A stretch of 64,000 nt of DNA, from positions 33 to 64,032 of the forward strand of contig JAZSET010000028.1 of assembly GCA_045531795.1 (NCBI GenBank). The letters run 5' to 3'. The notes beneath the pieces were generated by a model that searched no databases, was not told the origin of the DNA, and saw only the letters and a program-made list of their open reading frames with translations. The stretch is from Eubacteriales bacterium (lineage in GTDB: Bacteria; Bacillota; Clostridia; Oscillospirales; CAG-272). Position 1 is the first letter of the stretch. Every line of letters starts with the position of its first letter. Below, piece after piece: positions 35,560-63,936 of the stretch. The position numbers and the translations under genes are program-made.

Positions 35560-35801
35560 TTTTGAAAAACTCCTTTCAAAATATTTGTTGCGGTACACGG
35601 TGTACCGACACACCTTATTATACCATATACCATATACCTATTGTCAATAGGTTTTCAAAATTTGAAATATTTTTTAGCTATATTTACAAAAAAGACAAGT
35701 ATTTATGTGCATATCGACGATTTTTCTTTTCTTTCCGGATTAGTACAGTATAAAAATAAAGAGAAGGGCTGTTTTCCCTCCTCTTTAAGTTTGAATTCTG
35801 A

Positions 35802-48963: not shown

Positions 48964-49128
48964 TTTGATTCTCCTTGCAGTTTGTTTTATTTGCGATTGA
49001 GCCGGAGTTTATTTGCTTGACACTATAAGCCAACCTATATTATATCACAACAAAAAAGAGATGTCAAGAAAGAAAAGTTTTGTGTATATATCACATATTT
49101 ACACAAGTCGTGTATTTTCGACAAAAAA

Positions 49129-49152
49129 TCAGGCTGAGAAAACTCAGCCTGA
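49129..49152 (-). terminator. Terminator downstream of tyrS
   Basis: TCAGGCTGAG-AAAA-CTCAGCCTGA with a T-run on the minus strand. Confidence 0.6.
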
Positions 49153-49157
49153 CAGTT

Positions 49158-50381
49158 TTAGCCTAATAATACTTTATAGAAATTCTTTTTACCCTTGCGA
49201 ACCTTGATTCCGTCTGTGAGTTCGTCAAGTGAAATCATATGACCGATATTATCTATCTTGTTGTCGTTTATGAAAAGACCGCCCTGGGTTATAAGTCTGC
49301 GCGCTTCGCTCTTTGAGGGAGCAATTCCTGCAGCAACCATCATATCCATAACACCGATGGCATTATCTGTTAAGAGGGAAGCATCAATAGATACGGTAGG
49401 CATATTTGCATCATCGCCGCTGCCACCAAAAAGTGCTTTTGATGCAGTTCTTGCTGCTTCTGCTTCTTCTTTTCCGTGAACAAGTGCTGTAAGCTCGTAT
49501 GCAAGGATATCCTTAGCCTCATTAAGCTGTGCGCCCTCCCAGGAATCCATTTTGTCAATTTCTTCAAGAGGAATAAAGGTGAGCATACGGATACACTTAA
49601 GAACATCCGAGTCGCCGACATTTCTCCAATACTGATAGAACTCAAAAGGAGAGGTTTTATTCGGATCAAGCCAGACTGCACCGTTTGCGGTTTTACCCAT
49701 TTTCTTGCCCTCTGAATTGAGGAGAAGTGTAATTGTCATAGCATAGGCGTCTTTGCCGAGCTTTTTACGGATAAGCTCAGTGCCGCCAAGCATGTTCGAC
49801 CACTGGTCATCGCCACCAAACTGCATATTGCAGTCATATTCCTTGAAGAGATGATAGAAGTCGTATGACTGCATAATCATATAGTTGAATTCAAGGAACG
49901 AAAGTCCCTTTTCCATACGCTGCTTGTAGCATTCTGCCCTGAGCATATTGTTTACCGAGAAACAAGCACCGACTTCTCGTAACAGATCAACATAATTAAG
50001 CTTTAAAAGCCAGTCTGCATTATTTACGGCAATAGCACCGCCCTCACCGAAATCGATGAATTTTTCCATCTGCTTTTTGAAACATTCGCAGTTGTGCTCA
50101 ATTGTTTCGGGTGAAAGCATTGAACGCATATCACTGCGTCCCGATGGGTCTCCGATGTATCCTGTTCCACCGCCTAAAAGCACAACAGGCTTGTTACCTG
50201 CCATCTGCAAACGCTTCATAAGGCAAAGAGCCATAAAGTGACCTACATGAAGAGAGTCTGCTGTAGGGTCAAAACCGATATAAAATTTAGCCTTACCGGT
50301 ATTGATAAGCTCTCTGATTTCGCTTTCGTCTGTTACCTGGGCAATAAGACCTCTTGCCACAAGTTCTTCATATATCTGCAT
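49158..50381 (-). CDS. tyrS: Tyrosine--tRNA ligase
   Basis: The HIGH-type motif (SLHVGH), the KMSKS-type motif (KMGKT) and a C-terminal S4 domain. Confidence 0.95.
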   Translation of the reverse strand: MQIYEELVARGLIAQVTDESEIRELINTGKAKFYIGFDPTADSLHVGHFMALCLMKRLQMAGNKPVVLLGGGTGYIGDPSGRSDMRSMLSPETIEHNCECFKKQMEKFIDFGEGGAIAVNNADWLLKLNYVDLLREVGACFSVNNMLRAECYKQRMEKGLSFLEFNYMIMQSYDFYHLFKEYDCNMQFGGDDQWSNMLGGTELIRKKLGKDAYAMTITLLLNSEGKKMGKTANGAVWLDPNKTSPFEFYQYWRNVGDSDVLKCIRMLTFIPLEEIDKMDSWEGAQLNEAKDILAYELTALVHGKEEAEAARTASKALFGGSGDDANMPTVSIDASLLTDNAIGVMDMMVAAGIAPSKSEARRLITQGGLFINDNKIDNIGHMISLDELTDGIKVRKGKKNFYKVLLG

Positions 50382-50418
50382 AAAAACCTCCAGCGCCGCC
50401 GTGCGGCTTAATTACAAA

Positions 50419-50718
50419 TTAAAGTAAACCTGCCTTTTTGTCAAGACGGTAGTTTCGTATGTATACTACAAGATCTGCACCAACCATAATGAAGTTGAGA
50501 ACATAGAAGAAAAGCACATACCACTTAAAACTTGGTGAACTCAAGTTCACAAGCTTTGAGGAAATGCCTGCAATATAGCCAAAGAAGATAAGTAGTAGAA
50601 AGGCGAGACTCTTTCCTTTTGTTGTTCTTGCTTTGTAGGATTTAATTACATTTAACGGCCAGGAAAATCCGAAGCTTACTATCATTATAATTTCGAGAAT
50701 TTCTGCTAAGGTTGACAT
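50419..50718 (-). CDS. Small 3-TM membrane protein, PQ-loop/SemiSWEET-like
   Basis: 99 aa with three hydrophobic helices. The segment SWPLNVIKSYKARTTKGKS resembles the PQ-loop motif with PQ replaced by PL. Confidence 0.5.
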   Translation of the reverse strand: MSTLAEILEIIMIVSFGFSWPLNVIKSYKARTTKGKSLAFLLLIFFGYIAGISSKLVNLSSPSFKWYVLFFYVLNFIMVGADLVVYIRNYRLDKKAGLL

Positions 50719-50826
50719 TTTGATTTTTGTCCTTTCTATGTGACTTTACAAATTCTATAATATTATAGCACATTTTTTCTCAAATGCAAGAGAAATTGTA
50801 AAAAAAGCGGGATAATATGTGAAAAC

Positions 50827-51765
50827 TCATATTCCGTCCATTATATGATAATTCCTTAAATTTGTGTCTGTGATGCTGTTTTGCAGGGTAGCTGCAAGTT
50901 TTTCAAGGTCTGTTGCAGGCTTGTCTGAAAGCTTTTGACGGTTTATTTCTTCTGCAACAAGTGTGCATATTTCTTCAATGCTTTCAGCTTTTGCCTTTGC
51001 TTCGTCAGCAGAATTTCCAAGCTCAGTCAGGGCGACAAGCGAGTCTTCAAGACCTGACAGTACCGCAAGTTCACGCATACCGCGATATGCCCATTTATAA
51101 AATGGCTCGTATTTGTTATTAAGCAAATAAATTACCGATATCGTATGGCGTACAAATTCAAAAACTGATAGCTGAGCACTTCCGTTTTCTCCGCGTTTTA
51201 TGCAGCGAGTGTAATTGTATAACCCCGATTGTACCATCATAATTGTATGAGCGGCAAGTTTTTTCAACAAAATATCTTGTGGATAGCCGAGCAGAAGTTC
51301 ATTTCTGATCCTTGAAAACTCACCCGAAGCATCATAAAACACTTCACCGTTTGTTGCGCAGGCAAGGGAAGAAGGTGGAACATAAAGCCACTGATCGGTG
51401 GAAAGAGGAGTGCTTTGAGAGCCTGTAAATTTTTCGTAAAACCCGCCTGTGGTCATCACACCGTGACGATTACCGCCGACGGGCGACAAAAGTTGACGGC
51501 TGTAACCGCCATATTCTTTTGGAAGCTTAGAATAGAATCTTTCAAGCTCAAAGCCGTATTTTTCATAGTCCTCGTCTGAAAGCCACAAACAAAAACCCGG
51601 CTCAAAATCGTGGTCGCAGGAAATTTCGTCATCAAATCCGAAGCACTCCGATCCCTCTCCTGCAAGACCGACGGCTATTCTTTGTGAAAGCCCGGGGAAT
51701 TTCTTTTCAATTTCATCCTTGGCGCAGGCATCAAAAAAGCTCCTTGAAAGCTCAAGACCTTTCAT
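50827..51765 (-). CDS. DUF4037-like protein with an N-terminal nucleotidyltransferase-type motif
   Basis: IAVGLAGEGSECFGFDDEISCDHDFEPGFCLWL matches my recollection of DUF4037 proteins. It overlaps the upstream TPR gene by 14 nt. Confidence 0.65.
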   Translation of the reverse strand: MKGLELSRSFFDACAKDEIEKKFPGLSQRIAVGLAGEGSECFGFDDEISCDHDFEPGFCLWLSDEDYEKYGFELERFYSKLPKEYGGYSRQLLSPVGGNRHGVMTTGGFYEKFTGSQSTPLSTDQWLYVPPSSLACATNGEVFYDASGEFSRIRNELLLGYPQDILLKKLAAHTIMMVQSGLYNYTRCIKRGENGSAQLSVFEFVRHTISVIYLLNNKYEPFYKWAYRGMRELAVLSGLEDSLVALTELGNSADEAKAKAESIEEICTLVAEEINRQKLSDKPATDLEKLAATLQNSITDTNLRNYHIMDGI

Positions 51766-52573
51766 AGATTTCTCTCGATTTCTTATATAGATTTTGTGAA
51801 GTCAGGAAATATCCGAAATAATCAAATGAGGGAGCGCATTTTTCGGCAACAAAGGCATAATATGCGTTTCTTTCAATTCTTTTATCTTCAAGTATTTCTT
51901 CTGCCGCAAGTAAACATTCTTCAATTAACCTTGATTCGGGAGACTCTTTGGATTCATACAGATGAGCCATATTTACATATGTTACCGCAGCATCAAGTAA
52001 GGTATCGGTTTTGCCGAGGGTAATTGCAAGGGCCTTTTTGTATAAATCCTCGGCCTCATCAAAACGAGCGAGGTCTGCAAGTGTTGTGGCAAAATTGTTG
52101 TAAAGAGCCGCATTTCTCTCATCGTTTTCATCGAGTTCGGCCTTGTATATCTCTGTCGCTTTTTCATATAGAGCCACTGCCTTTTCGGGATAACCGAAAG
52201 CCTTGCTTGTCGTGGCGGCGTTTATCATAATGGTAGCACCCGACGGGGAATTCTCCATACCTGTAAAGGTTATAAGCTCCAGAGCCCGCTCTATTGCAGA
52301 AAGTCCGGATTCTTTATCTGACATACGCCTCGACAAGCCGAGAATTTCGTTTACAACAGTGAGCTCACCCGACAAATCTCCTGTAATAATCGCCTCTTTT
52401 TGCCAATAATCAAGCAGATTTTTTGCACCAATCAGATTATCTGTTTCAAAAAAACTGTCAAGCTTTTCAATTACTCTTGAAACGGGTATTCTTTTTGCGC
52501 TTTGCTCTGCCTTTTTGCATGCAGGACATTCAAAATCAATTTTTAATACTTCAAAATCTTTATTATCGTTCAT
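51752..52573 (-). CDS. TPR-repeat protein with an N-terminal CxxC element
   Basis: TPR-like helices (ALYNNFATTLADLARFDEAEDLYKKALAI, AAVTYVNMAHLY). The start is uncertain; MNDNK at 52573 was chosen because GAGAGAGAA precedes it. Confidence 0.6.
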   Translation of the reverse strand: MNDNKDFEVLKIDFECPACKKAEQSAKRIPVSRVIEKLDSFFETDNLIGAKNLLDYWQKEAIITGDLSGELTVVNEILGLSRRMSDKESGLSAIERALELITFTGMENSPSGATIMINAATTSKAFGYPEKAVALYEKATEIYKAELDENDERNAALYNNFATTLADLARFDEAEDLYKKALAITLGKTDTLLDAAVTYVNMAHLYESKESPESRLIEECLLAAEEILEDKRIERNAYYAFVAEKCAPSFDYFGYFLTSQNLYKKSREIYERS

Positions 52574-52671
52574 ATATTTCTCTCTCATAACTTTATTACT
52601 TTTATTATGCAATGAAAATGCAAATTTGTCAATATAAAAATACGAAGCACATCCATTTCAAATCCATAGCT

Positions 52672-52706
52672 ATAAGAAAAGAAGAGCATCAGCCGATGCT
52701 CTTCTT
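52672..52706 (-). terminator. Terminator of the TIR-STAND / membrane-protein operon
   Basis: 12-bp stem AAGAAGAGCATC-AGCC-GATGCTCTTCTT just after the stop at 52711, with a T-rich tail on the minus strand. Confidence 0.65.
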
Positions 52707-52710
52707 TCCT

Positions 52711-54717
52711 TTATTTTTTAACAACCGAATATTTGTTTTCCTTAAAAAAGTCTGCCATGGTGCGAAGCAGTAATTCGTCATACTTGTAATAATCAAAGTC
52801 CGCGGGAGTATAGGTGCTTTTTCCTGAAATTTCATTTGCTTTACCGGCAAGATATTTTGAAAGCTCATCAAGCCCTGCAAAGGTGGTAATGCACGAATGC
52901 TTTTTCTGCGCATTGTTTTTTATCACTTTTTTTATTTTGTCACCGTCTTCTTTGACGGTGATTCTCCTTTTCTTCATCGGAAGATATTCGCAGATCATAT
53001 GGTATGCATTCCATCTGAAATGTTCCTGGGCAAGCATGGCGTTTCTCTTGTTTCTAAGGAAATAATTGTTGTATGTATAATTCTTGTCCTCCAGACTTTC
53101 ACATGTGGCTTTTATGAGAGCTTCCCCGTCTCCTTTTCCGTCTTTCACATAATCAAGTCCAAGCAGGTTCAGTTTAAAACGAAGATTGCTTGCAAGTGAT
53201 ATATTGCTGTATATATCGAAATAGGAAAGCTTGCTCCAGTTGTCTTCACCTGAATAAAACTTATTGACACTCTTAGCCAGACCGCAAAGCGCCTCATTGA
53301 CGATGATGTCGTGAGTGAAAAATGATTCCGTATCACCGTAAAAAGTTATACCGTCGCACAGGGGCAGAGAAGAATCATTATATAAGAATATGCGGAAATT
53401 TTCACAATTATCGAGCAGAAGCTTAAATCTGTCAGCAATTTCAATGTTTTTGTAAATGTCTTTTGTGTCTATCAGAATGTAACTAAAGCTGTTTTCTTTT
53501 TTTATTTCTTTGACCATTTCCTTAAGACAGTCAAATTCATAACAGTTTTCATCTACGCACTTTGTGTTGTAGGGCATATCGGGGAGAGGGAAATATTCGT
53601 CTTTGTTTTTTGAAAGGGCATCCAGTGTGTCTACAAGACCGCCGATTTCCCAAATGTTCTCGTTTGCATTTTTGTCATAGATGAAATAGTTGACAGGAAA
53701 TGCCCGGTATTCTCCGTTGTCATACATTGAAAGCTGATTGTTAATTATAAATTTTCTGTAAATCTCACGGTTGAGACTGCTTAAGCCAAGCAGAAATACA
53801 TTCAGGGCAACTCCTTTTTTTACCGAGGTATCTTCCTCGAAAAAGCTTTCAGGCATATCTTTTGTTATGGGGTTTTCATCTACAAAGTTACGGGCAATAA
53901 GCTCGTCCTGACTAAAGAGAGTAATCCTTTCGCGCACGTTTTCTCCCAGAGAATCAATCTGTCTTTTTGCCGTAACAATTGCGTTTCCGTCTGACTCTAA
54001 ATAGAAACAGAAGTTCTTAAAATTCTTATATGTGTCAAAATAAGCTATTATGTCGCGTATTCTGTTGTAATGGTTACTCCCTTCATTTGGAAAAATGAAA
54101 TTATATCTTGTTTTTCTGTTAAAGAATTTGCTGTTCAGAAATTCTTTCGTGATTTTTTTGCGCATAACCAGAAAGCCATTGTTTACAAGCTCGTTTGCAT
54201 AATTTTTCTCTGCATTTTCGGGAAGAAGAATGATAGTGCTTTTATAATTTTTTGCATAACTCAGTGACGCGGCAGAAGAAGAGACCATAATATCACAACT
54301 TCCTTTAACAAGTAAGGAGGCTATTTTAAACACATTTAAAACCCGCCGACCGAAAGTGCTTATTGCCGCATATGAGGTTGAGACAACAGCGAGCGCAATT
54401 CCGAATCCGTATATATAAACATACTGAGGGAATAAAAGGGCATAGTTTTCCACAAGACCGGTGCTCGTATCTCCGACAAGAGATTTTAAGGCTGCAGGGA
54501 AGCTGTCCGAAAGGTAAAAGAAGAAACTTCTTTTCTCCATAAGTACAAGCTTTTCGTAAAATGCGGGAAGAGTATAAATTATAAAGTTAAGTACGAAAAT
54601 CAAGCTTATAAATATAAATGTTTTTAAGGCATTTTTCTTTCTGAAAACAAACAGTATGCCAACAATGGCAAGTATTATTTCTGCCAAAAGGATACTTTGG
54701 TTAATTGATTCCCACAT
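52711..54717 (-). CDS. Membrane protein: 3 N-terminal TM helices, degenerate Rossmann-like segments, RyR-like C-terminal motif (candidate effector/sensor)
   Basis: TM helices at aa ~8-26, 33-53 and 101-121. Segments CDIMVSSSAASL...STIILLPE and LNVFLLGLSSLNREIYRKFI are beta-alpha-like. The C-terminus (AQEHFRWNAY...KKHSCITTFAGLDEL) resembles the RyR-domain pattern (H.RWNA...KHPCLVP..eL). The ORF itself is solid; the domain assignments are by eye. Confidence 0.6.
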   Translation of the reverse strand: MWESINQSILLAEIILAIVGILFVFRKKNALKTFIFISLIFVLNFIIYTLPAFYEKLVLMEKRSFFFYLSDSFPAALKSLVGDTSTGLVENYALLFPQYVYIYGFGIALAVVSTSYAAISTFGRRVLNVFKIASLLVKGSCDIMVSSSAASLSYAKNYKSTIILLPENAEKNYANELVNNGFLVMRKKITKEFLNSKFFNRKTRYNFIFPNEGSNHYNRIRDIIAYFDTYKNFKNFCFYLESDGNAIVTAKRQIDSLGENVRERITLFSQDELIARNFVDENPITKDMPESFFEEDTSVKKGVALNVFLLGLSSLNREIYRKFIINNQLSMYDNGEYRAFPVNYFIYDKNANENIWEIGGLVDTLDALSKNKDEYFPLPDMPYNTKCVDENCYEFDCLKEMVKEIKKENSFSYILIDTKDIYKNIEIADRFKLLLDNCENFRIFLYNDSSLPLCDGITFYGDTESFFTHDIIVNEALCGLAKSVNKFYSGEDNWSKLSYFDIYSNISLASNLRFKLNLLGLDYVKDGKGDGEALIKATCESLEDKNYTYNNYFLRNKRNAMLAQEHFRWNAYHMICEYLPMKKRRITVKEDGDKIKKVIKNNAQKKHSCITTFAGLDELSKYLAGKANEISGKSTYTPADFDYYKYDELLLRTMADFFKENKYSVVKK

Positions 54718-54719
54718 TT

Positions 54720-57176
54720 TTATCTCTCCTGTACCAGATTCTCGGTATTTGTGATTTTTTCTTTTATTTCGGCAATTTGCTTTGCGTCGGGCGAGTAAAT
54801 GCTTTCTGCGGACTGTTTTGCCGTTTCGTAGGCATCAGCAGCCTCTCTGTATTCATCAAGCGCAAAACAGATATCACCCAAAAGCAAGTGGGCAAGATAT
54901 GTGGTCGGATGTCTCATTCCAACGCACTCGTTGTATCCGTCGGAACTTCTTTGCGCAAAGCTTTTTGCTTCCTCGTATCTGCCCAGCTTATAAAGCACGG
55001 TTGCCTTCAGGCGGTTTGAATAAACAATATCCACATGGCTTTCGTCAAATAAAGTCAAAAGAATCTGAATTGCTTTTTCTATGTATTCAAGGCACTCGTC
55101 ATTATACCTTTCGCCCGCTATGAGAAGTTCAACAAGCTGCAGATACCCGCCTGCAATTTTGCCATAGTGAAATTCCCCCGGCGAAAAAGATGCTATGGCG
55201 TGACTTATAGAGTCCTCAACATAGCTTTTTGCGATCTCAAAGTCTTTTTCTTCTTTCGTGCGGGAATACTTTACCATATACTGCTTTGAAAGATTGGTTT
55301 TGGTCATAGTATGGCGCGATTTTTCGTCTGACGTTGTAAGTGTAATCTGAGAAAATGCTTTGTCTGCAATACTCAGCCAGTGAAGCGACTTTTCGTGTGC
55401 ATTTTCAAAATGATTATCATAAGAATAAATCCAACCTATTTTGAAAGCGGAGCGCGCAGTCTCAAAACTGTTCTCACCCTTTGTTTCCAGGTGAAAATCA
55501 TAGATTTTTTTCGCCAGCATTTCGGCAAAATCAGCATCAACCGCGAAACTGAAAAGACTCTGGGCATGATAATAAAAATCAGCTGTTTTATTTGTAACGG
55601 TATCAAATCTTTCAAGGATAGCTCGTGTTATCACAGCGAGCTTGTCTTTTTCACTCTTTTTCATGCCCCAGGTCTTTTTGTCTTCAATCGTGTCGGTGAA
55701 GCGTGCGATAAATTCGCCGCAATTTTCCTCGGTGGCTTTGATTTCGTGCTTAACAACCTCCCTGATAATCGGGTGCAGAGCAATGCCTTCCGTGTTTTTG
55801 ATAATCCAGCTCTTTGTTTCCAGATCTTTGATCAGCTTTGTTGAGTCAAGGTCTGACCAGACTCTGAAACTTCTTACATTTACACCTTCAATCGGCATAA
55901 ACGAAAGATACATCAGGACATTTTTCTCTTCCTCGGAAAGAGAGAAAAGTTTGAACATTTTAAGCAGATTCTCATACGCCACCTGCTTTTTCATATTTTC
56001 GCCTGCAACTTCTTCGGAAAGAGAAAGTATACCTTCTTTTTTCAGGGACAAAAGCATCTCCTCGGGTGTCTGACCGCTGTTTTCCATATGCTGAGCCAGA
56101 AGTTCAACCGTGTATGTATGACGGTTTACAAGCTCAATAAGCTCTTCAAGATATGGGTCGTCATCTTCAACATCATATCCGCCATAGTTTTGCATAAAAA
56201 TCTCTTTTAACTCGGCCATAGACTCTATTGCGTCTATTTTTACTGTGGGGAAAAGGCGGGAGAAGTCGTTCCTAGTTGTGACGAGAACGTGATAATCTCC
56301 GGAAACAAACTCATGAAGATCTTCGTCGCTGATTGTGTCAAAGTTATCAATAACGATAAGAGTACTTCCGCCGGAAATTTTCTTGATTTTATCAAGCTTT
56401 CTTTTGAAAAAATCATCATCGCTCTCTTTAGAGCCGTCACTCATTGTAAAACGAGCCATCTCCGGCTCAAGAGTAAACGGACTTTCAGATATAATTGTGC
56501 TTTTTAAACTGCCGTTATATGTAGCATAGATGATAGTATCATAATCATTTTTATGTCTTTTTGCATACTGCTTCGCGATCTGTGTTTTGCCTATACCGCC
56601 AATACCGTGTAAAAATTGCACATTTTCGCCATTTTTAAAGTTGTTCTCAATTTCGGCCAAAACATTATCTCGTCCCAAAAAGATTTTTTTCGGTGTGATT
56701 GACGGGGTTGGTAAGAGTTTGAACTGTCTGAATTTTCCACTCCAGGCACTGTTTTTACCTGCCTTATCAAGCACTGCGTAAATTTGCCTTGAAAGGTCTT
56801 CGATACGATCATCGAGTGTCGGCTTTGTCGCATCTACGCGATGAACGGCCAGAAGGTCGTATTCAAGGTCGCCTACAAGCTCTGCTTCGTCAATAACAAA
56901 CGGTATTACGGGTTTGCTGTTATCAAGAGCTACAGCAATTTCCTTGGGAACTTCTCTTGACAAGATTGAACTTTCACTCTGAATAAAAAGAACAAGCTTT
57001 GATGCTTCGATGGCATCAACAATGACCGATTTGTAGTGTTCACTGGCCAAAATTTCACCTGTACATATCCAGCAGGGGATATTGTAGCAATTTGAAAGAC
57101 GATTTACGACATATTCTGCAATTTCCTGATCTTTGAAAGAAAAGCTTACAAAAATATCATGTTGACTTTGATTCAT
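54720..57176 (-). CDS. TIR domain / NB-ARC-type STAND NTPase / TPR protein
   Basis: TIR: DIFVSFSFKD and SxxVPKEI (candidate catalytic E79). NB-ARC: Walker A GIGGIGKT (aa 191-198), Walker B LIVIDNFD, VLVTTRN, and the MHD-like ALHPIIRE. The C-terminus has TPR-like repeats (LGRYEEAKSFAQRS, LDEYREAADAYETA). Confidence 0.85.
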   Translation of the reverse strand: MNQSQHDIFVSFSFKDQEIAEYVVNRLSNCYNIPCWICTGEILASEHYKSVIVDAIEASKLVLFIQSESSILSREVPKEIAVALDNSKPVIPFVIDEAELVGDLEYDLLAVHRVDATKPTLDDRIEDLSRQIYAVLDKAGKNSAWSGKFRQFKLLPTPSITPKKIFLGRDNVLAEIENNFKNGENVQFLHGIGGIGKTQIAKQYAKRHKNDYDTIIYATYNGSLKSTIISESPFTLEPEMARFTMSDGSKESDDDFFKRKLDKIKKISGGSTLIVIDNFDTISDEDLHEFVSGDYHVLVTTRNDFSRLFPTVKIDAIESMAELKEIFMQNYGGYDVEDDDPYLEELIELVNRHTYTVELLAQHMENSGQTPEEMLLSLKKEGILSLSEEVAGENMKKQVAYENLLKMFKLFSLSEEEKNVLMYLSFMPIEGVNVRSFRVWSDLDSTKLIKDLETKSWIIKNTEGIALHPIIREVVKHEIKATEENCGEFIARFTDTIEDKKTWGMKKSEKDKLAVITRAILERFDTVTNKTADFYYHAQSLFSFAVDADFAEMLAKKIYDFHLETKGENSFETARSAFKIGWIYSYDNHFENAHEKSLHWLSIADKAFSQITLTTSDEKSRHTMTKTNLSKQYMVKYSRTKEEKDFEIAKSYVEDSISHAIASFSPGEFHYGKIAGGYLQLVELLIAGERYNDECLEYIEKAIQILLTLFDESHVDIVYSNRLKATVLYKLGRYEEAKSFAQRSSDGYNECVGMRHPTTYLAHLLLGDICFALDEYREAADAYETAKQSAESIYSPDAKQIAEIKEKITNTENLVQER

Positions 57177-57218
57177 TGTCTCACCTCATTGGCAGGGTTA
57201 TAGTATTCGAACGCAGAT

Positions 57219-57227
57219 ATTATATCA
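57219..57227 (-). promoter_or_regulatory. Extended -10 element (TGATATAAT) upstream of the TIR-STAND gene
   Basis: On the minus strand this reads TGATATAAT, about 43 nt upstream of the ATG. There is a weak -35 (TTGCGC) 17 nt upstream and an RBS (GAGGTGA). Confidence 0.5.
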
Positions 57228-57271
57228 TATTTTTCCAAAAAGCGCAATAATATCTCAAAAATAGCACTTAT

Positions 57272-57333
57272 GAGGGGATTTGAAAGGTGCGGTCGCCGGT
57301 GTGTAATTTTATTTGGGTGCGGAGAGGGGATTT
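57272..57333. repeat. Scrambled duplicated fragments of the tRNA-fMet 3' end (att-like remnants)
   Basis: 57312-57333 (TTTGGGTGCGGAGAGGGGATTT) is a perfect 22-bp direct repeat of 57657-57678, which spans the tRNA 3' end. 57272-57284 (GAGGGGATTTGAA) repeats 57669-57681. GGTGCGG recurs at 57286-57292. Confidence 0.8.
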
Positions 57334-57416
57334 TTCATTGCCCGGTCGCCGTCGTGTGTCGTTTTGTGTGCCTCGCCGGCTCGGCTTCAAAACTCGCACT
57401 TTGGGCGACACCGTTA

Positions 57417-57447
57417 GAAAAAACAGTCCACCGGACTGTTTTTTTCT
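57417..57447. terminator. Bidirectional terminator-like hairpin 1
   Basis: A6-ACAGTCC-ACC-GGACTGT-T8. Confidence 0.5.
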
Positions 57448-57537
57448 GCACTAACCCTCCACCGTCGCATAGTCGTCTCGGTCACAAAGCATAGCTTTGC
57501 TTCCGATACTCATTGCTTTGGGCGGTTTCGGCTTCGC

Positions 57538-57564
57538 AAAAAAGACCCACCGGGTCTTTTTTTC
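57538..57564. terminator. Bidirectional terminator-like hairpin 2
   Basis: A6-GACCC-ACC-GGGTC-T7, the same architecture and loop as hairpin 1. Confidence 0.5.
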
Positions 57565-57621
57565 TTGCCTACCCCTGACCTTGGCCGGAGCTCACTCGGT
57601 TCAAATCCTTTTTAACATGCG

Positions 57622-57659
57622 AAAAAACAAAGGACACCTGTTGGTGTCCTTTGTTTTTT
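57622..57659 (-). terminator. Terminator of the tRNA-Leu/tRNA-fMet transcription unit
   Basis: 12-bp stem ACAAAGGACACC-TGTT-GGTGTCCTTTGT flanked by A and T runs, immediately 3' of the tRNA. Confidence 0.65.
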
Positions 57660-57737
57660 GGGTGCGGAGAGGGGATTTGAACCTCCTGACCTCCGGGTTA
57701 TGAGCCCGACGAGCTAACCAAGCTGCTCCACTCCGCG
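57659..57737 (-). tRNA. tRNA-Met (CAU), initiator-like
   Basis: The reverse complement reads CGCGGAGTGGAGCAGCTTGGTTAGCTCGTCGGGCTCATAACCCGGAGGTC.... It has a C1xA72 mismatch and three G:C pairs closing the anticodon stem, as in bacterial initiators. The hand fold shows one A-C mismatch in the T stem. Confidence 0.82.
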
Positions 57738-57742
57738 ATATA

Positions 57743-57831
57743 TGGTGCCGGAAACCGGGCTCGAACCGGTACGAGGGGTGAACCTCACGGGATTTTAAGT
57801 CCCGGGCGTCTGCCAGTTCCGCCACTCCGGC
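57743..57831 (-). tRNA. tRNA-Leu (UAA)
   Basis: The reverse complement reads GCCGGAGTGGCGGAACTGGCAGACGC...CTTAAAA loop..., with a long variable arm, T-arm ACCGG-TTCGAGC-CCGGT and an encoded CCA. Confidence 0.9.
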
Positions 57832-57993
57832 AGGTGCTCTTCTAAAGCGCTTACATATTATATCACATACTATTTCCTTTGTCAAGGTTTTTTCAAACTT
57901 TTTTATGCGCTCATACTATTATTATTCCGTTTTTACTCTTTTTATGCAAAGAAAAAGTCCGCTTTCGCGGACTTTTTTATTTTTGTCAGATTA

Positions 57994-60807
57994 TTAAGCA
58001 TCTGCTTCAACTGTAAACTCTACAGGAACTGACTTATCGTTAAGCTCAAGTGTGAGTTTATAGTCGCCTGCCTCAAGTGCAGTCTTGGGAGTTACGGTGA
58101 TTACATTATCAACACGGGCAATTTCATAGCCTGTGATATCTACATTCTCGCCGTCTTTCTTAAGGCTCTTTGCGCGGATAGCACCGATTCCGTCAAAGCT
58201 GAAGTCGCAAGTGATTACTATTGCACCTTCATTGTATTCTGCAGTCATGGGAGCGTCGCCGAGTACAATAACCGAGATTACCTTGCCGTCGTCAATGATT
58301 ACTTCAACATTTGACATATATGCTGTTGAGAGCTTAAGTTCTGTTACATTGAAGTTTTCGTCTATATCGAATATTGTTACATCTGTATCAAGTGAGTATG
58401 TTGTAGTGCCGAGTGTAATTGTAGCACTTGTGTAACCTGTCACGATACCTGATGTGATATCAGCAACTACAGATGAGATTGTTCCGTCGTTGTTGAGCTT
58501 ATAGTTTGTACCTGCTGTAAGTTCAGAGTTTGTTGAGTAGAACTGATCAACCTTACCTGTATCGAGAACGAGGGCGGTGTATATTCTGTATACCTTACCG
58601 TCAACATATTCGCTACCGATGTTTTCAAGCACCTTAACTGCGTTTACAGAGCTTGTGCTGCCGTCAAATGAACCGTTTGAGATGTAAAGGTAACGGAGTG
58701 TTTCAACACTACCTACCTCATTGTTGAAGACCGCTGCTACATATGCGTCGTCTGCAACAGTGATGTTTCCGTCAAATGAGCCGGTCTTCACATTGTAGTT
58801 ATAATCGCCCTTGCCGTCTGACTCACGAACTATGATTGTTGTATTCTTGTTAGTTACAAAGTCAATTTCGCCGTCAAAACCGCTGAGAGATGAAACGCTG
58901 CTTGCGTCTCCCGCTTCGAGAGTGAACATTGAGTCATTGTTTGTAATTGTTGTGTTATTTGCTTCGTCAATGATTACTGCGATTTCCTTATGTGTTGAAT
59001 CGTTCTGAACGAACTGGTCAGAGCCTGTTACGATTGCGCCGTCATCAATCACATAGGGGATAAGTGAGTAAACCTCGTCATCAGATACAGTGTATCTGTA
59101 TGCACGGCCTGCAACAACTTCGTCTGTATCAGAGAAGATAGAAACAGTGTCGCCGTCGATGTTTACCTTAACTGCGTAACCAAATCTGCCGTCTGTAAAT
59201 ACGGGTCTTGCGTCTGTAAGTGTGATAAGGTAATTTGATGCGTTACCCGATTCAACACTTGTATCAATTGCGAGGATCATACCGTTTACTGCAACGATTC
59301 TGACCTTGTCGCCGACTGCGAGCTGGTCCTTTATAGACTTTGCTGTGATGCCGAGTGCTTCGCAACCGAGAGTATATGTCTTATCGTTGATTCTTGCTGT
59401 GGTGTCTGTAAGCTTTGTTACAGTGTGTGATGATGAAACCTTAATTGTAGAAACGATGTCAAGGCTTTCGTTTGCCTTGTTGAAGTAGTAGAGAACATAG
59501 TCACCGTCTTCTGCCTTTGCAGAGTTGTTGAAACCGCCCTCAAGCTCTTCTTCGGTCATATCGTTTGCAATGTTGTATTCGCCACGGTCGCTGATTTCAA
59601 GCTTGTCAAAGCTGTAGGGCATAAGAATAATTCTGCTTGCTGTTTCATCATTTTTGCTGTCAAAGATTACTCTTGCTTCATAGATGCCGAGAGCATTGTG
59701 AAGAGCTTCGTTGTCCTTGAGCTGAACTAGCTTATTGCCGCTTGAGAATGAATATACGAGGATTTCGTTTGCATTTGTTGAAAGCTCATCTGAAAGCTCT
59801 TCTACAACCTGGTAGCGTGTGCCGTTAATTTCAACATAATCAAATATTCCGTCATCCTTGTTTTCGTGAACAACGATGCCGTCATTCATTATTTCTTCAC
59901 GGCTGATTTCTGTTGCGCCGAGAACCTTGATGTTCTTTGCTGAGTCGATGTTGTAAACAAGACGAACTCTCTTGCCGAGGTTTGCGTTAGCATCACCCTC
60001 AAGACCGAGGTCTGCATACTTTACTGTGATGATCTTTTCGCCGTTGTCCTCGTATGAAAGGCTGACGTAGTTATCCTTTACAACAACAGAAGCGTCGCCT
60101 GTTGAGAAGTCGTTAGTTGCCACGATTGTAGCTTCTGCAAGCTTGTAACCAAATATCTTTTCGATAATTGTTGTGCTTTCGTAAAGAGTTACTCCGTTAA
60201 CAACGGTTTTGGGAACAAGGTATTCTGCAGTAAGTGCATTATAAAGGATTGCTGCAGTTTCGCCACGGGTAAGTTTTTTCTCGTAGCTTAAATCTTCAAG
60301 TTCTGCATCAAGTGCAAGTTTTACTGCTGCATTGATGTATGTCCAGGGATAGCCCTTAACCATACCGTCTGTTTCGTGTCCGAGAATACGGACAAGCATA
60401 GTCATTGCATCACGAAGAGTGATGCCTGCCAGGGGTTCAAAGGTTGTGTCTGAAGTACCGATAATATATCCGTTTGAATATGCCCAGGAGATTGCACCCT
60501 TGTATGTATCATTTTTAAGGTCAGTAAAGGGGGTGGTGTTAACTGAGCCGGAATTGTCATTTCCAACCATAAGTCTGTAAAGTAAAAGCGCCATTTGCTC
60601 ACGTGTTACATTTTCTTCAGGTGAGTATTCGCTGTCGCTTGTACCTTTTGTTACTCCAATGTCAGAGATGATATTGATCTGTTCGGCAAACTTATGATCA
60701 GGCCCAACGTCTTCAAAGCTTTTTGCCGATGTGCTGAATGCAAAGGAACTTATTATTGTAATAACAGCAAGTCCCATTGCAACAATTTTTTTGAAGTTTT
60801 TCATCAA
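57994..60807 (-). CDS. Large secreted SLH-domain cell-surface protein
   Basis: Signal peptide (MMKNFKKIVAMGLAVITIISSFAFSTSA) and three SLH-like modules (FEDVGPDHKFAEQI..., FTDLKNDTYKGAISWAY...), followed by about 700 aa of beta-rich repeats. Confidence 0.85.
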   Translation of the reverse strand: MMKNFKKIVAMGLAVITIISSFAFSTSAKSFEDVGPDHKFAEQINIISDIGVTKGTSDSEYSPEENVTREQMALLLYRLMVGNDNSGSVNTTPFTDLKNDTYKGAISWAYSNGYIIGTSDTTFEPLAGITLRDAMTMLVRILGHETDGMVKGYPWTYINAAVKLALDAELEDLSYEKKLTRGETAAILYNALTAEYLVPKTVVNGVTLYESTTIIEKIFGYKLAEATIVATNDFSTGDASVVVKDNYVSLSYEDNGEKIITVKYADLGLEGDANANLGKRVRLVYNIDSAKNIKVLGATEISREEIMNDGIVVHENKDDGIFDYVEINGTRYQVVEELSDELSTNANEILVYSFSSGNKLVQLKDNEALHNALGIYEARVIFDSKNDETASRIILMPYSFDKLEISDRGEYNIANDMTEEELEGGFNNSAKAEDGDYVLYYFNKANESLDIVSTIKVSSSHTVTKLTDTTARINDKTYTLGCEALGITAKSIKDQLAVGDKVRIVAVNGMILAIDTSVESGNASNYLITLTDARPVFTDGRFGYAVKVNIDGDTVSIFSDTDEVVAGRAYRYTVSDDEVYSLIPYVIDDGAIVTGSDQFVQNDSTHKEIAVIIDEANNTTITNNDSMFTLEAGDASSVSSLSGFDGEIDFVTNKNTTIIVRESDGKGDYNYNVKTGSFDGNITVADDAYVAAVFNNEVGSVETLRYLYISNGSFDGSTSSVNAVKVLENIGSEYVDGKVYRIYTALVLDTGKVDQFYSTNSELTAGTNYKLNNDGTISSVVADITSGIVTGYTSATITLGTTTYSLDTDVTIFDIDENFNVTELKLSTAYMSNVEVIIDDGKVISVIVLGDAPMTAEYNEGAIVITCDFSFDGIGAIRAKSLKKDGENVDITGYEIARVDNVITVTPKTALEAGDYKLTLELNDKSVPVEFTVEADA

Positions 60808-61186
60808 AATCTTCCTCCGTTAATTGTATTTGAGAGGCTACGGTTTCAGGCCTTGCCTCTGCGTAAATATGATAGCACAGGTCGCTCGGGCTCTTCAACG
60901 AAAGGCAAATCATTGTTATCGCTTTGTAAAATTCGTTTATTTTTTTGTTATAATATTGTATAATTATGACTTTAAAAGCAGAGAAACGGCAAATAAAAAA
61001 CGCATAAATCATAGTTTGTGTATAGATTTTTAACAACAAATATCATTTAAATAATTACAGTTAAACTATCATTTATACTTTTGTGCAAACCCTGACATAT
61101 TTGCCACCTCACCGGTATTGTACCACCCCCACGCGCGTATATATTATAAGGATAACAAAAAATCTGAAAAAATTTTAAAAAAGTAC

Positions 61187-61215
61187 TTGACAAAACAAAA
61201 GGTTGTTGTTATAAT
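61187..61215 (+). promoter_or_regulatory. Consensus sigma-A promoter of the perR-like gene
   Basis: TTGACA (61187-61192), 17-nt spacer, TATAAT (61210-61215). Confidence 0.6.
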
Positions 61216-61223
61216 GTAAGTAT

Positions 61224-61248
61224 AATAACGATAATGATTATCGTTATT
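61224..61248. promoter_or_regulatory. Perfect 12-1-12 palindrome, Fur/PerR-box-like operator
   Basis: AATAACGATAAT-G-ATTATCGTTATT lies between the -10 and the RBS. Its core, ATAATgATTAT, resembles the 7-1-7 Fur-family box. Confidence 0.6.
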
Positions 61249-61264
61249 GATTTGAGGTGATGAT

Positions 61265-61648
61265 ATGGAGAGAGTAATAAAACATTCAAAGCAGAGAGAT
61301 GCAATACTGTCTTTGCTTAAGAGCACATACTCCCATCCAAGCGCTGAATGGCTGTACACGAGCCTGAAGGAAGAGTTTCCCGCTCTTAGTCTTGCAACAG
61401 TTTACAGAAATCTGAATTTACTCTGTGAAATGGGCCTTGCGAGAAAAATCGAGGTGGGCGACGGTACGGTACGATTCGACGGAAACATTGATAATCACTA
61501 TCATTTCTTGTGTTCGGGCTGTAGCAAAGTAATTGATGTAAGCGAAAACGAGTTCGGCGGAATTAACAAAGAGATTGAAAGCAAATATCAGGTCAGAGTC
61601 GATACTCATTCGGTAGTCTTTTACGGGAAATGCTCTGAATGCATTTAA
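61265..61648 (+). CDS. Fur-family regulator, PerR-like
   Basis: 127 aa with HPSAEWLY...[17 protein letters not shown] and a C-terminal CSEC. Confidence 0.85.
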
Positions 61649-61691
61649 AAAGTCAATAAAAAATTATTTTAAATATTTAAGGAGAAAAATT

Positions 61692-62279
61692 ATGAAAAAG
61701 TTTGTTTGCTCAGTTTGCGGTTATGTTCACGAGGGAGATTCTGCTCCCGAAAAGTGCCCCGTATGTAAGGTTCCTGCAGAAAAATTCAGAGAAATGGAAG
61801 AGGGCGCAGCGCTCGCGGCAGAACACGAATACGGCGTTTATGCTAAAACAGTAAAGAACAACCCCGATATCAGCGAAGAAGATAAGAAGTACATATTCGA
61901 GCAGCTTATGGCTAACTTCAACGGTGAATGCGCTGAGGTTGGTATGTATCTCTGTATGGCAAGAATTGCACACAGGGAAGGCTATCCTGAAGTAGGCGTT
62001 TACTGTGAAAAGGCAGCATATGAAGAAGCAGAGCATGCAGCAAAATTTGCAGAGCTCCTCGGCGAGGACCTTGAACCCAATATGAAAGCAACAACAAAGG
62101 ATAATCTCAAGTGGAGAGTTGATTGCGAATACGGCGCAACACAGGGTAAATTTGACCTTGCAGCATGTGCAAAGAAGAACGGCCTTGATGCAATCCACGA
62201 TACAGTACACGAAATGGCCCGCGACGAAGCTCGCCACGGCAGAGGCCTTGAGGGACTTCTTAAGAGATATTTTAAGTAA
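61692..62279 (+). CDS. Reverse rubrerythrin (N-terminal rubredoxin-like, C-terminal diiron four-helix bundle)
   Basis: CSVCGYV...CPVCKV at the N-terminus, and the diiron ligand motifs EEAEHAAKF and [10 protein letters not shown] at the C-terminus. Confidence 0.9.
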
Positions 62280-62483
62280 GAACAACACAAAAAAGCATAA
62301 TTTTGGGGTGTTCTGCATTTGTTGCAGAACACCCCTTTTTCTTTGGGAGACATATCGCTTAAAATGAGCCACGAGGTAATTGTAGAGAAAAATAACAGGA
62401 GCGGAGGGTAGCCCTCCGCTCCTTTACCGGTTATGCGGCAATCATATTGACCTTGTTAGTCTCAATGATGCGCTGTATGTAGA

Positions 62484-63185
62484 TTATTCTATGATTCTTC
62501 CGTCAGTTGAAATTGTGACAACTCTCCAGGGAATAAATTTTCCGCTTGCTTTGAGGGCATTTTTTGCAGCATTTTCGATGCCGCCGCAACAAGGAACTTC
62601 CATACGGACAATCGTCAGGCTCTTTATATTGTTGTTTGCAATAATAGCAGTAAGCTTTTCGGTGTAATCGCCCTCATCAAGCTTGGGACAACCGATGAGC
62701 GTAATATGATTACGGATGAATTCATTGTGGAAATTTCCGTAGGCATAAGCGCTGCAATCGGCGGCGATAAGCAGGTTCGCTTTGTCAAAATACGGGGCAT
62801 TTACAGGGACAAGCTTAATCTGAACAGGCCACTGACTGAGCTGGCTCACATTTTCTGTTTTTGTAGTTGTGCCGCAAGAACAATTATCTCTTTTAATTGC
62901 CTTTGAGTTGGTTCCGGGGCAACCGCAGGGAAGCGGTGTAGATGATTTTTGAGCTTTCGCCTTTTGCACGGCTTCTTCGTTATAAGCGGGAGCTTCTCTT
63001 TCTTCAAAAGTAATTGCGTTAACAGGGCAGGCAGGGAGACAATCTCCAAGACCGTCGCAGTAATCTTCGCGGATAAGCTTGGCCTTGCCGTTTATCAGTT
63101 CAATAGCTCCCTCGTGGCAAGCATTGACACAAAGTCCGCAGCCGTTGCATTTTTCTTCATCAATTCTAATTATTTTTCTTATCAT
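62484..63185 (-). CDS. 4Fe-4S dicluster ferredoxin-domain protein
   Basis: CNGCGLCVNACHEG and CDGLGDCLPACP at the N-terminus, with a Cys-containing C-terminal domain (EVPCCGG). Confidence 0.75.
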   Translation of the reverse strand: MIRKIIRIDEEKCNGCGLCVNACHEGAIELINGKAKLIREDYCDGLGDCLPACPVNAITFEEREAPAYNEEAVQKAKAQKSSTPLPCGCPGTNSKAIKRDNCSCGTTTKTENVSQLSQWPVQIKLVPVNAPYFDKANLLIAADCSAYAYGNFHNEFIRNHITLIGCPKLDEGDYTEKLTAIIANNNIKSLTIVRMEVPCCGGIENAAKNALKASGKFIPWRVVTISTDGRIIE

Positions 63186-63202
63186 ATCAATTCCTCCTGG
63201 TT

Positions 63203-63262
63203 TGTTGACTTTACAACTACATTATAGTATAATAATTATAACAAGTATGTTGTTTTTACAAC
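63203..63262. promoter_or_regulatory. Two copies of a 15-nt dyad motif in the divergent ferredoxin / crp-fnr intergenic region
   Basis: TGTTGACTTTACAAC (63203-63217) and TGTTGTTTTTACAAC (63248-63262). Both contain GTTG-N6-CAAC. Confidence 0.4.
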
Positions 63263-63276
63263 GAAAGGCGGAAAGA

Positions 63277-63936
63277 ATGAAAAAATTTATTCCTGTTTTA
63301 AAAAGAACGCAGATGTTTTCGGGTATTGGAGAGGATGAGATCGAGTCGATGCTTTCCTGCCTTGGCGCGAGGCTGTGTAATTATAAAAAAGGACAATATA
63401 TACTTCGTCAGGGCGAGCATTTGAGCGATGTTCTTGTCTTAGCCCAAGGAGTAGCACACATTCAAAGGGATGACTATTGGGGAAACCGCAGCATATTAAA
63501 TCAGATTTCGGCAGGCGAGATGTTTGGCGAGGCATATGTCGCGCCTGAAAGCGGAACACTTTTGAATGATGTTGTTGCTCTTTCTGAATGTACAGTTATT
63601 TTCTTTGATGTGAAACGAATGCTGACAACCTGTTCTTCTGCCTGCCGTTTTCATTCTATGGTAGTGCAGAATATGTTTTTTGCAATTTCAGAGAAAAACA
63701 AAAAACTCGTGCAAAAGCTGACTCATATGTCCAAGCGCTCTACACGGGAAAAACTTATATCTTATTTGTCTGAGGAAGCCAGAAAACAAGGTGCTTCAAA
63801 AATAACAATTCCTTTTAACCGTCAGCAACTTGCAGATTTTCTTTCTGTTGACCGCAGTGCAATGTCAAACGAGCTTTGCAAGATGCGAGATGAGGGTATG
63901 CTACGATTTGAAAAGAATAGTTTTGAATTATTGTGA
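63277..63936 (+). CDS. Crp/Fnr-family transcriptional regulator
   Basis: A cNMP-binding-like N-terminus (MFSGIGEDEIESM...GEMFGE) and a C-terminal HTH (NRQQLADFLSVDRSAMSNELCKMRDEG). The start is at the ATG at 63277, after AAAGGCGGAAAG. Confidence 0.85.
   Translation: MKKFIPVLKRTQMFSGIGEDEIESMLSCLGARLCNYKKGQYILRQGEHLSDVLVLAQGVAHIQRDDYWGNRSILNQISAGEMFGEAYVAPESGTLLNDVVALSECTVIFFDVKRMLTTCSSACRFHSMVVQNMFFAISEKNKKLVQKLTHMSKRSTREKLISYLSEEARKQGASKITIPFNRQQLADFLSVDRSAMSNELCKMRDEGMLRFEKNSFELL

Follow-up and report, generated by a model that had tools for sequence, protein, structure and literature searches.

Integrases usually cross over at the anticodon loop or the T-loop of tRNA genes (tDNAs), and these attachment-site (att) sublocations are reportedly the ones set out by Williams in 2002; a study of ssrA in Dehalococcoides is said to have found several short copies of the gene's 3' end downstream of it, marking successive strain-specific insertions. 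Among the islands recorded in Islander, the T-stem region is the att location of 1836 of 3919 (PMC4383910). Further, cis-mobilizable elements (CIMEs; Pavlovic 2004 and Bellanger 2011, as reviewed in PMC5704250) and their tandem accretion have been described for ICEs (integrative and conjugative elements) and for IMEs (integrative and mobilizable elements) at tRNA 3' ends. Here we investigated the region downstream of an initiator tRNA gene, tRNA-fMet, in a 64,000-nt stretch of DNA from a Eubacteriales bacterium (contig JAZSET010000028.1; the whole stretch is called the window, and its coordinates are used throughout), where the 3' end of the tRNA recurs upstream of an operon that carries a TIR-domain gene. 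The kind of feature is well known, namely tDNA att scars at an integration hotspot, and a conserved gene-less remnant is mildly unusual. We propose that an element probably once entered tRNA-fMet at the T-loop sublocation and that the interval between the two tRNA-end copies is its CIME-like remnant, which holds no genes and was later enlarged by local duplications.

For comparison, tRNA-fMet loci were taken from two assemblies of the same species, L001 (ena:ERZ28593640 scaffold_44; 96–98% identity to the window, TyrS identical) and L028 (ena:ERZ27317359 k141_25672; 97.6% identity; reached through a Fur protein look-up), from the metagenome-assembled genome (MAG) RGIG4639 (L004 and L009) and from a Eubacteriales MAG of another species (L005); L021 and L029 are loci elsewhere. 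The organism is poorly sampled, as a 19-mer of the tRNA 3' end found only three relevant loci among 185,579 GTDB species representatives.

Copies of the tRNA-fMet 3' end

Read away from the tRNA operon, the features that carry the argument are as follows.

57857–57885, minus strand: promoter of the tRNA-Leu/tRNA-fMet operon (TTGACA, 17-nt spacer, TATAAT, extended -10 TG)
57743–57831, minus strand: tRNA-Leu(TAA) (ARAGORN; Rfam tRNA model, 48.5 bits)
57659–57737, minus strand: intact, initiator-type tRNA-Met(CAT) (ARAGORN; Rfam tRNA model, 51.2 bits, cutoff 29)
57622–57659, minus strand: hairpin T1, a perfect 17-bp A-run/stem/T-run directly after the CCA (-24.2 kcal/mol, z = -7.6)
57585–57608, plus strand: inverted partial copy of tRNA-fMet positions 42–65, from the 3' strand of the anticodon stem to the T-loop (20/24 identical)
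57455–57582, minus strand: unit 1 of a diverged tandem duplication, holding hairpin T2 and a second hairpin at 57481–57506
57538–57562: hairpin T2 (-14.2 kcal/mol)
57334–57454, minus strand: unit 2, holding hairpin T3 and orthologous to the single unit of L005
57418–57444: hairpin T3 (-14.4 kcal/mol)
57312–57333, minus strand: attR-a, the distal perfect copy of the tRNA 3' end (tRNA positions 60–79 and 2 nt), with its boundary in the T-loop
57272–57304, minus strand: attR-b, in which arm motif and T-loop/T-stem occur a second time in truncated and degenerate form, reading ACACACCGGCGACCGCACCTTTCAAATCCCCTC

tRNA-Leu(TAA) lies 5 nt upstream of tRNA-Met, whose C1xA72 mismatch, read from the sequence, is typical of initiator tRNAs, and the operon promoter matched 12/12 consensus positions in a promoter scan. 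The 22-mer TTTGGGTGCGGAGAGGGGATTT occurs in the same orientation at 57312–57333 and 57657–57678, the distal copy lying 345 bp downstream of the tRNA-end copy, and it comprises tRNA positions 60–79 (T-loop to CCA) and 2 flanking nt. It has exactly two copies in the window, both at this locus, and no further copy was found there with 3 mismatches allowed (0 expected, 100 shuffles). tRNA-Met is the integration target, its 3' end being the proximal copy of the repeat. The gene itself is 79 nt long; its T-stem has one additional A on the 5' side (AGGAGG vs CCCCT: a bulge or an A:C mismatch), and its discriminator position is a C instead of an A. It is 98–99% identical in L005 and L009, and its 3' part with both features also occurs in L001/L004. 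The tRNA-like fragment GGAGGTCAGGGGT of the spacer is without the extra A.

The distal copy, attR-a, is identical to the tRNA at 20/20 positions, and identity then drops to 10/59 in the 59 nt upstream, which is below random. Local alignment of that upstream region with the tRNA was no better than alignment with shuffles, and the Rfam search returned tRNA-Met and tRNA-Leu with no third tRNA-like match, even at E up to 10. Because identity steps from 100% to background inside the T-loop, attR-a is best read as a displaced tDNA fragment from site-specific recombination and not as a decayed tRNA.

Smaller pieces of the tRNA end accompany attR-a. The 13-mer GAGGGGATTTGAA occurs at 57272–57284 and 57669–57681 (0.07 expected), GGTGCGG at 57286–57292 equals tRNA positions 71–77 and is not significant as a lone 7-mer, and CGGTCGCCGGTGTGT at 57290–57304 recurs at 57343–57357 with 87% identity. 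A direct 8-mer of the tRNA, AGGTCAGG, at 57574–57581 and the inverted fragment at 57585–57608 (z = 6.8, 0/300 shuffles) had been overlooked in the first reading. The recurring GGTCGCCG..GTGTGT is the arm motif, which is duplicated as attR-a and attR-b with a 53-nt period; attR-b is supported by the 13-mer repeat, by the 15-nt repeat and by the local alignment of the two att copies. attR-b consists of a degenerate arm motif followed by TTCAAATCCCCTC, lies directly upstream of the TIR promoter and is not present in L005, as judged from the alignment with the window. The pieces that had looked scrambled are explained by an apparent 53-bp partial duplication of the attR end.

The 323 bp between the 22-mers hold no gene, only spurious open reading frames (ORFs) of 68–74 aa. 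On the tRNA-sense strand, the order away from the tRNA is T1, 13 nt, the inverted tRNA fragment, unit 1, unit 2, attR-a, attR-b and the TIR promoter. T1, T2 and T3 are each a GC-containing hairpin with a T-run downstream of a transcription unit, as predicted for intrinsic terminators, and fold with z-scores of -3.4 to -7.6; the loop ACC (plus strand) is common to T2 and T3. A simple terminator scan missed all three because their A-run and T-run pair with each other. The arms of T1 are 100% complementary, its stem is kept in L005 and L001, and T1 is the predicted terminator of the tRNA operon, bidirectional in form. For the 406-nt region as a whole, the folding z-score is -6.6. The two units share 61% identity (alignment score 42 vs a shuffle maximum of 15), and against the single unit of L005 unit 1 scores 80 and unit 2 scores 198. 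The presence of two similar ACC-loop terminators is attributed to this old tandem duplication of ~120 bp. Unit 1 begins with the tRNA-like AGGTCAGGGGT (exact 8-mer 57574–57581) and is kept in L001 at 93.6% identity; unit 2, which is absent from L001, ends in a highly conserved, arm-like segment of ~33 nt, AAAACGACACACGACGGCGACCGGGCAATGAA (about 57334–57366). The repeat on the tRNA-Met 3' end, the pieces repeating its other parts, the GTGTGT recurrence and the three hairpins, two of them with the loop ACC, had all been reported in an earlier note on this DNA, which also asked whether the tRNA is intact; all of these are present, the 7-mer being without significance of its own, with the hairpins confirmed as stable folds and the tRNA as an intact gene by both ARAGORN and Rfam.

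We next compared the interval with that of L005, where the order is tRNA-Arg, tRNA-Leu, tRNA-fMet, a 210-bp spacer homologous throughout, and a perfect 25-nt copy of the tRNA end, followed by ordinary genes for LysR, a PF03601-family (Cons_hypoth698) protein, a Na/Ca exchanger and ApbE; the L005 locus contains neither a TIR operon nor an integrase. Identity between the window and L005 is 98–99% in the tRNAs (99% in tRNA-fMet), 73% in the promoter, 73–88% in the spacer and 73% in the unit body, and the arm-like segment together with the tRNA copy is identical at about 54/55 positions (hand count from alignments). Homology stops right after the copy, and beyond it the two sequences are 47% identical, i.e. 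random. Judged from these alignments, the gene-less interval is old and conserved across species; that of the window is longer than that of L005 because of the ~120-bp diverged tandem duplication.

The inverted tRNA fragment lies 51–74 nt past the tRNA end, symmetric about T1, and both L001 and L005 have it at the corresponding position. Partial copies of a neighbouring tRNA in inverted orientation were significant in the window, in L009 (1702–1724, z = 6.4) and in L021 (5740–5760, z = 6.0), and were found at none of the 4 control tRNAs examined. They lie 51–93 nt past the tRNA end, symmetric about a terminator hairpin, and each ends at the T-loop or the anticodon loop. Such fragments could serve a recombinase as accessory sites, could have arisen by template switching at palindromes, or could be convergent copies that have decayed. 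At L021 (5594–6100; GCA_054292685.1, JAZPKU010000045), past a tRNA-Ser(GCT), a perfect 83-nt direct repeat with a 236-nt period holds the last 4 nt of the tRNA, a terminator hairpin and the inverted copy of the tRNA-Ser T-arm; it stands directly upstream of a TIR-STAND homologue (76% identity), which is the layout of the window at a different tRNA.

Strain variation downstream of tRNA-fMet

Downstream of tRNA-fMet, three strains of one species (the window, L001 and L028) have three different contents. In L001, an element with relaxase, resolvase and HTH_17 genes ends in ...TTTGACCCCT followed by CATAACCCGGAGG...CACCCA, so placed that its attR starts in the anticodon loop of tRNA-fMet. After this attR come T1, the inverted fragment, unit 1, 38 unrelated nt, and then the TPR/DUF4037/tyrS block: in blastn, L001 7462–7710 corresponds to window 57704–57455, and L001 from 7742 onward corresponds to the window from 52641 downward. 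The 38-nt filler gave chance 8–11-mers only against the window. The part of the window that is missing from L001, and the genes and features within or beside it, are listed below.

52642–57454: segment absent from L001, comprising unit 2, attR-a, attR-b, the TIR-STAND-TPR gene, its 668-aa partner and their terminator
54720–57176: TIR-STAND-TPR gene, 818 aa (Pfam)
52711–54717: partner of the TIR gene, 668 aa (no Pfam match)
52657–52665, minus strand: inverted T-loop-like 9-mer GGATTTGAA, 8 nt past the terminator of the 668-aa gene and beside the L001/window breakpoint

The L001 arrangement might speculatively be ascribed to a deletion between paralogous CGACGG motifs that kept CCTTTCAAA from attR-b, on the strength of a 9-nt match. 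Exact look-ups of the SLH, TIR, rubrerythrin and Fer4 proteins for the far ends of the L001 element returned no record, the PQ-loop protein led to a 1-kb contig only, and the C-terminal 98 aa of the L001 helicase, used as a homology query, gave no candidates.

L028 has intact tRNAs, and its homology to the window ends exactly at 57659, the tRNA 3' end, where an island begins that carries AbiEi/AbiEii, DUF5655, two DNA methyltransferases and a large serine recombinase. A 46-nt block that is 100% identical and equals tRNA positions 34–79 is common to L001, L004 and L028, as are TGACCCC motifs in the element arms. In both arms of these anticodon-loop elements (L001 7338–7470, L004 2598–2730, L028 6290–6320), TTGACCCC(A/T) motifs are repeated: the relaxase-side end has three, of which one directly adjoins the crossover, and the tRNA-proximal end has two. 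They are likely binding sites of a recombinase or a recombination directionality factor. The L004 element shares its last 178 bp with that of L001 at 97.8% identity (relaxase genes, 74%); next to it lie an amidohydrolase gene and then a module in which GGATTTGAACC is inverted and the ACAGTCCGG.GGACTGT hairpin recurs, and the array ends in a 30–45-nt tRNA-fMet fragment with 1 mismatch. L009 has a decayed tRNA-fMet fragment ~860 nt past its tRNA, and RGIG4639 (L004 and L009) carries several tRNA-fMet fragments in tandem. Overall, these comparisons strongly support tRNA-fMet as a repeated integration hotspot, as the earlier note had supposed from the window and as L001, L028 and L004/L009 now bear out.

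Two further features of the window stand apart from this locus. In the conspecific L029 (4124–10262; ENA ERZ28436056), a ~6.1-kb insertion carries a tyrosine integrase, a resolvase and an HTH gene. The 63 bp of window 62211–62273, the 3' end of the rubrerythrin gene, are duplicated around it, which makes this a second, independent integration site in the window. At 34285–35613, just downstream of tRNA-Arg(CCT), a minus-strand ORF contains a long run of near-identical short CTTCAGTAGCTTCTGTGTCTT-like repeats and probably encodes a low-complexity repeat protein.

Origin of the interval and the alternatives

In the sequence of events that we favour, the attP of an element, carrying a copy of the tRNA 3' end, would have recombined with the tRNA gene, leaving the identity boundary in the T-loop; integration would have restored the tRNA, and its former 3' end would have become the displaced fragment attR-a. 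The body of the element would then have shrunk to a gene-less remnant made of what appear to be two att arms, the tRNA-proximal arm supplying the operon terminator T1 and the distal arm being the ~33-nt arm-like segment beside the copy. This remnant state would be older than the split from the L005 species, or else the same element family would have been present in both. The ~120-bp tandem duplication would have followed and given rise to the second and third similar terminators, and a 53-bp partial duplication, or a second scar, would have produced attR-b, which together with the inverted fragment would account for the scrambled look. The TIR-STAND pair would be a strain-specific cassette that was acquired separately and lies immediately distal to the scars, and the hairpins most likely terminate transcription from the strong tRNA promoter and insulate the downstream TIR operon from it.

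The distal arm is strongly conserved, as are the last 178 bp of the L001/L004 element, which suggests, by analogy, that it was or is a recombinase-binding arm. Two junctions are predicted from this scheme: an empty site should read tRNA...CTCCGCACCCAAATAAAATTACACACC, with the flank on the far side of attR-a following straight after the tRNA, and a circle formed by the excised remnant should read ...GGCGACCGGGCAATGAAAAATCCCCTCTCCGCACCCAAAAAACAAAGGACACC. A nested variant, in which a longer attR fragment (positions 44–79) would have been split in the T-loop by the unit body, found partial support, with z = 4.6 in L005 and z = 2.9 in L001, no significance in the window and an unsplit fragment in L004.

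Several results weigh against a remnant of this origin. No full-length, integrase-bearing element with these arms was found in IMG/VR, GenBank phages, PLSDB plasmids, GTDB representatives or JGI metagenomes: in IMG/VR, the 19-mer of the tRNA end and the arm motif ACGACACACGACGGCGAC had 0 matches each and GGGCAATGAAAAATCCCC had 4 unrelated, terminator-like ones; the 421-bp spacer had no match among GenBank phages and PLSDB plasmids in distant mode; and the 19-mer had 6 chance matches in the JGI metagenomes, none of them near a tRNA. Similarly, Pfam searches of the neighbouring genes (47743–57176 and 57994–63936) revealed no integrase in or beside the interval. That the distal arm and copy are almost perfectly conserved between species could instead reflect a host function, as an RNA or a regulatory site, and simple integration does not explain an inverted tRNA fragment that is symmetric about a terminator. 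Finally, the comparators come from just 4 genomes, and the order proposed for the duplication, the L001 deletion and the acquisition of the TIR pair is tentative.

The repeat and fragments could instead be the att sites of an integrase-less island, bounded on one side by the tRNA and comprising the TIR pair and possibly the DUF4037/TPR pair, as the earlier note had proposed; we consider this unlikely. L001 is without the TIR pair, unit 2 and the tRNA-end copy together, GC content is somewhat low at 52500–55000 (0.34–0.39), attR-b directly abuts the TIR promoter, and a T-loop-like 9-mer follows the terminator of the TIR operon, all of which would suit an island; further, the L004 amidohydrolase, as cargo between a tRNA-fMet fragment and a module of terminator, inverted T-loop and distal fragment, suggests that cargo-bearing relatives exist. 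The earlier note had itself named, as an observation that would count against it, a related genome carrying the same spacer and copy and no TIR operon, and L005 is such a genome. The TIR pair, moreover, lies distal to and outside the repeat-bounded interval, and no direct-orientation att copy was found on its far side, at 52600–52720 or 50700–50840; the earlier note had likewise seen no left-hand copy. The best inverted tRNA match in 52600–52720 is the 9-mer at 52657–52665 (z = 3.4, 3/300 shuffles), whose other 4 copies outside the locus all fall inside long ORFs; it may, weakly, be a vestige of an island end. The DUF4037/TPR pair beside tyrS is kept in L001 at about 98% identity though the TIR pair is missing there, and it is therefore not part of any TIR island; it was rejected as a candidate. 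A link of the scars to the TIR operon is supported in part, in that the operon is strain-variable.

Homologues of the TIR pair also bear on this question, since they occur in other chromosomal contexts (EamA to AraC, Barstar to AraC and tRNA-Ser to AraC), with no tRNA-fMet or integrase beside them in the contexts examined. A weak match of ~50 nt (76–78% identity), overlapping the 3' end of the partner, was found between the flanks of the window's pair and those of the homologues, and the tRNA-side flank showed no conservation with them. The TIR-STAND-TPR protein has at least 386 homologues at E below 1e-20, which, where named, come from Ruminococcaceae, Acutalibacteraceae or Clostridia MAGs. 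A ~670-aa partner without a Pfam domain follows the TIR gene in 4 of the 5 homologue contexts examined and is missing in one, and the two genes form a conserved candidate defence system. An acquired cassette is a plausible description of the pair.

Improbable, too, is that the spacer and the distal copy are a functional module selected by the host, and not a scar. Such a module might be a non-coding RNA or a leader that imitates, at its 3' end, the acceptor/T-arm of tRNA-fMet; alternatively, the antisense segment 57585–57608 might pair with read-through tRNA transcripts to form double-stranded RNA for RNase III, insulating a toxic TIR operon. The 54/55 identity of arm and copy against 73–88% elsewhere, the fold of the 406-nt region and the significant inverted tRNA copies about a terminator at three loci and two tRNAs, with none at the controls, would all fit selection. 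However, the fold z-score is driven by the three terminator-like hairpins, a strong terminator stands between the tRNA and the module, and Rfam recognises nothing in the region besides the two tRNAs. Nor were compensatory changes found: the inverted arm of L005 is complementary to its tRNA at 16/24 positions (hand count), and the best inverted match there falls short of significance (z = 1.3). Unit 2 and the copy are gone from L001, whose tRNA is nevertheless kept, the whole flank is replaced in L028, and homology with L005 ends exactly at the copy, as at a junction of element and chromosome.

We regard as doubtful the possibility that the locus is a live, integrase-less mini integrative element, a "landing pad" of fixed architecture that is kept and moved in trans by integrases encoded elsewhere. 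Its order would be a tRNA-end core, optional cargo, a bidirectional terminator, the crossover-adjacent tRNA segment as an inverted copy, a hairpin module, the conserved arm and a second core. It would recruit defence cargo, with the TIR-STAND pair here and an amidohydrolase in L004, and the recurring inverted fragment (of tRNA-fMet, and of tRNA-Ser in L021) would be an accessory site of an undescribed recombinase family.

Very unlikely is a decay of extra tRNA-fMet genes after tandem or convergent duplication: fragments in both orientations covering different parts of the tRNA, and the inverted L009 fragment with its weak surrounding similarity, can be read in this way, but a tRNA pseudogene should show similarity along most of its length or a covariance-model match, and neither was found, identity stepping to background inside the T-loop and the copy including 2–5 nt of 3' flank.

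Significance and comparison with described systems

We infer a strain-variable hotspot between tRNA-fMet and tyrS, with the TIR-STAND pair as an accessory (defence) cassette and DUF4037/TPR as core, and the persistence of a tRNA att scar in more than one species, as a 200–350-bp gene-less interval whose distal arm hardly varies. Such a scar, too short and lacking an integrase, would be dropped by automated island finders. Should the conserved arm and the inverted fragments turn out to have a function, trans-mobilised mini-elements in gut Clostridia would be indicated; if not, the locus reflects ordinary tRNA-linked genome plasticity.

Like the displaced 3' tDNA fragments of Islander-type islands (PMC4383910), the locus combines an intact tRNA with a direct-orientation copy of its 3' end that runs from the T-loop through the CCA into the flank, with a sharp identity boundary, and neighbouring strains carry islands at the same tRNA with the 46-nt anticodon-loop block. 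Unlike Islander islands, the interval between tRNA and fragment is 323 bp long and holds no integrase or other gene, so that it fails the integrase and length filters, and the remnant is conserved between species. The elements seen at tRNA-fMet in L001, L004 and L028 use a different identity block, positions 34–79. Several short tRNA-end copies are also what the Dehalococcoides ssrA repeats reportedly look like; those, however, are said to bound kilobase-scale islands with recombinases, whereas the best-defined interval here is gene-less.

The locus also resembles CIMEs (PMC5704250), in that attL/attR-like repeats form the bounds, genes for integration or transfer are lacking and the unit stands in tandem with acquired DNA at a tRNA 3' end; structurally, perfect 22-bp repeats enclose no genes and are accompanied by a conserved distal arm. 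Unlike CIMEs, the interval has no known parental ICE or IME with matching arms. Described CIMEs are in the kilobase range, far larger than this remnant. Consistent with CIME accretion, the incoming element of L001 appears to have integrated on the tRNA side and to have pushed the remnant distally.

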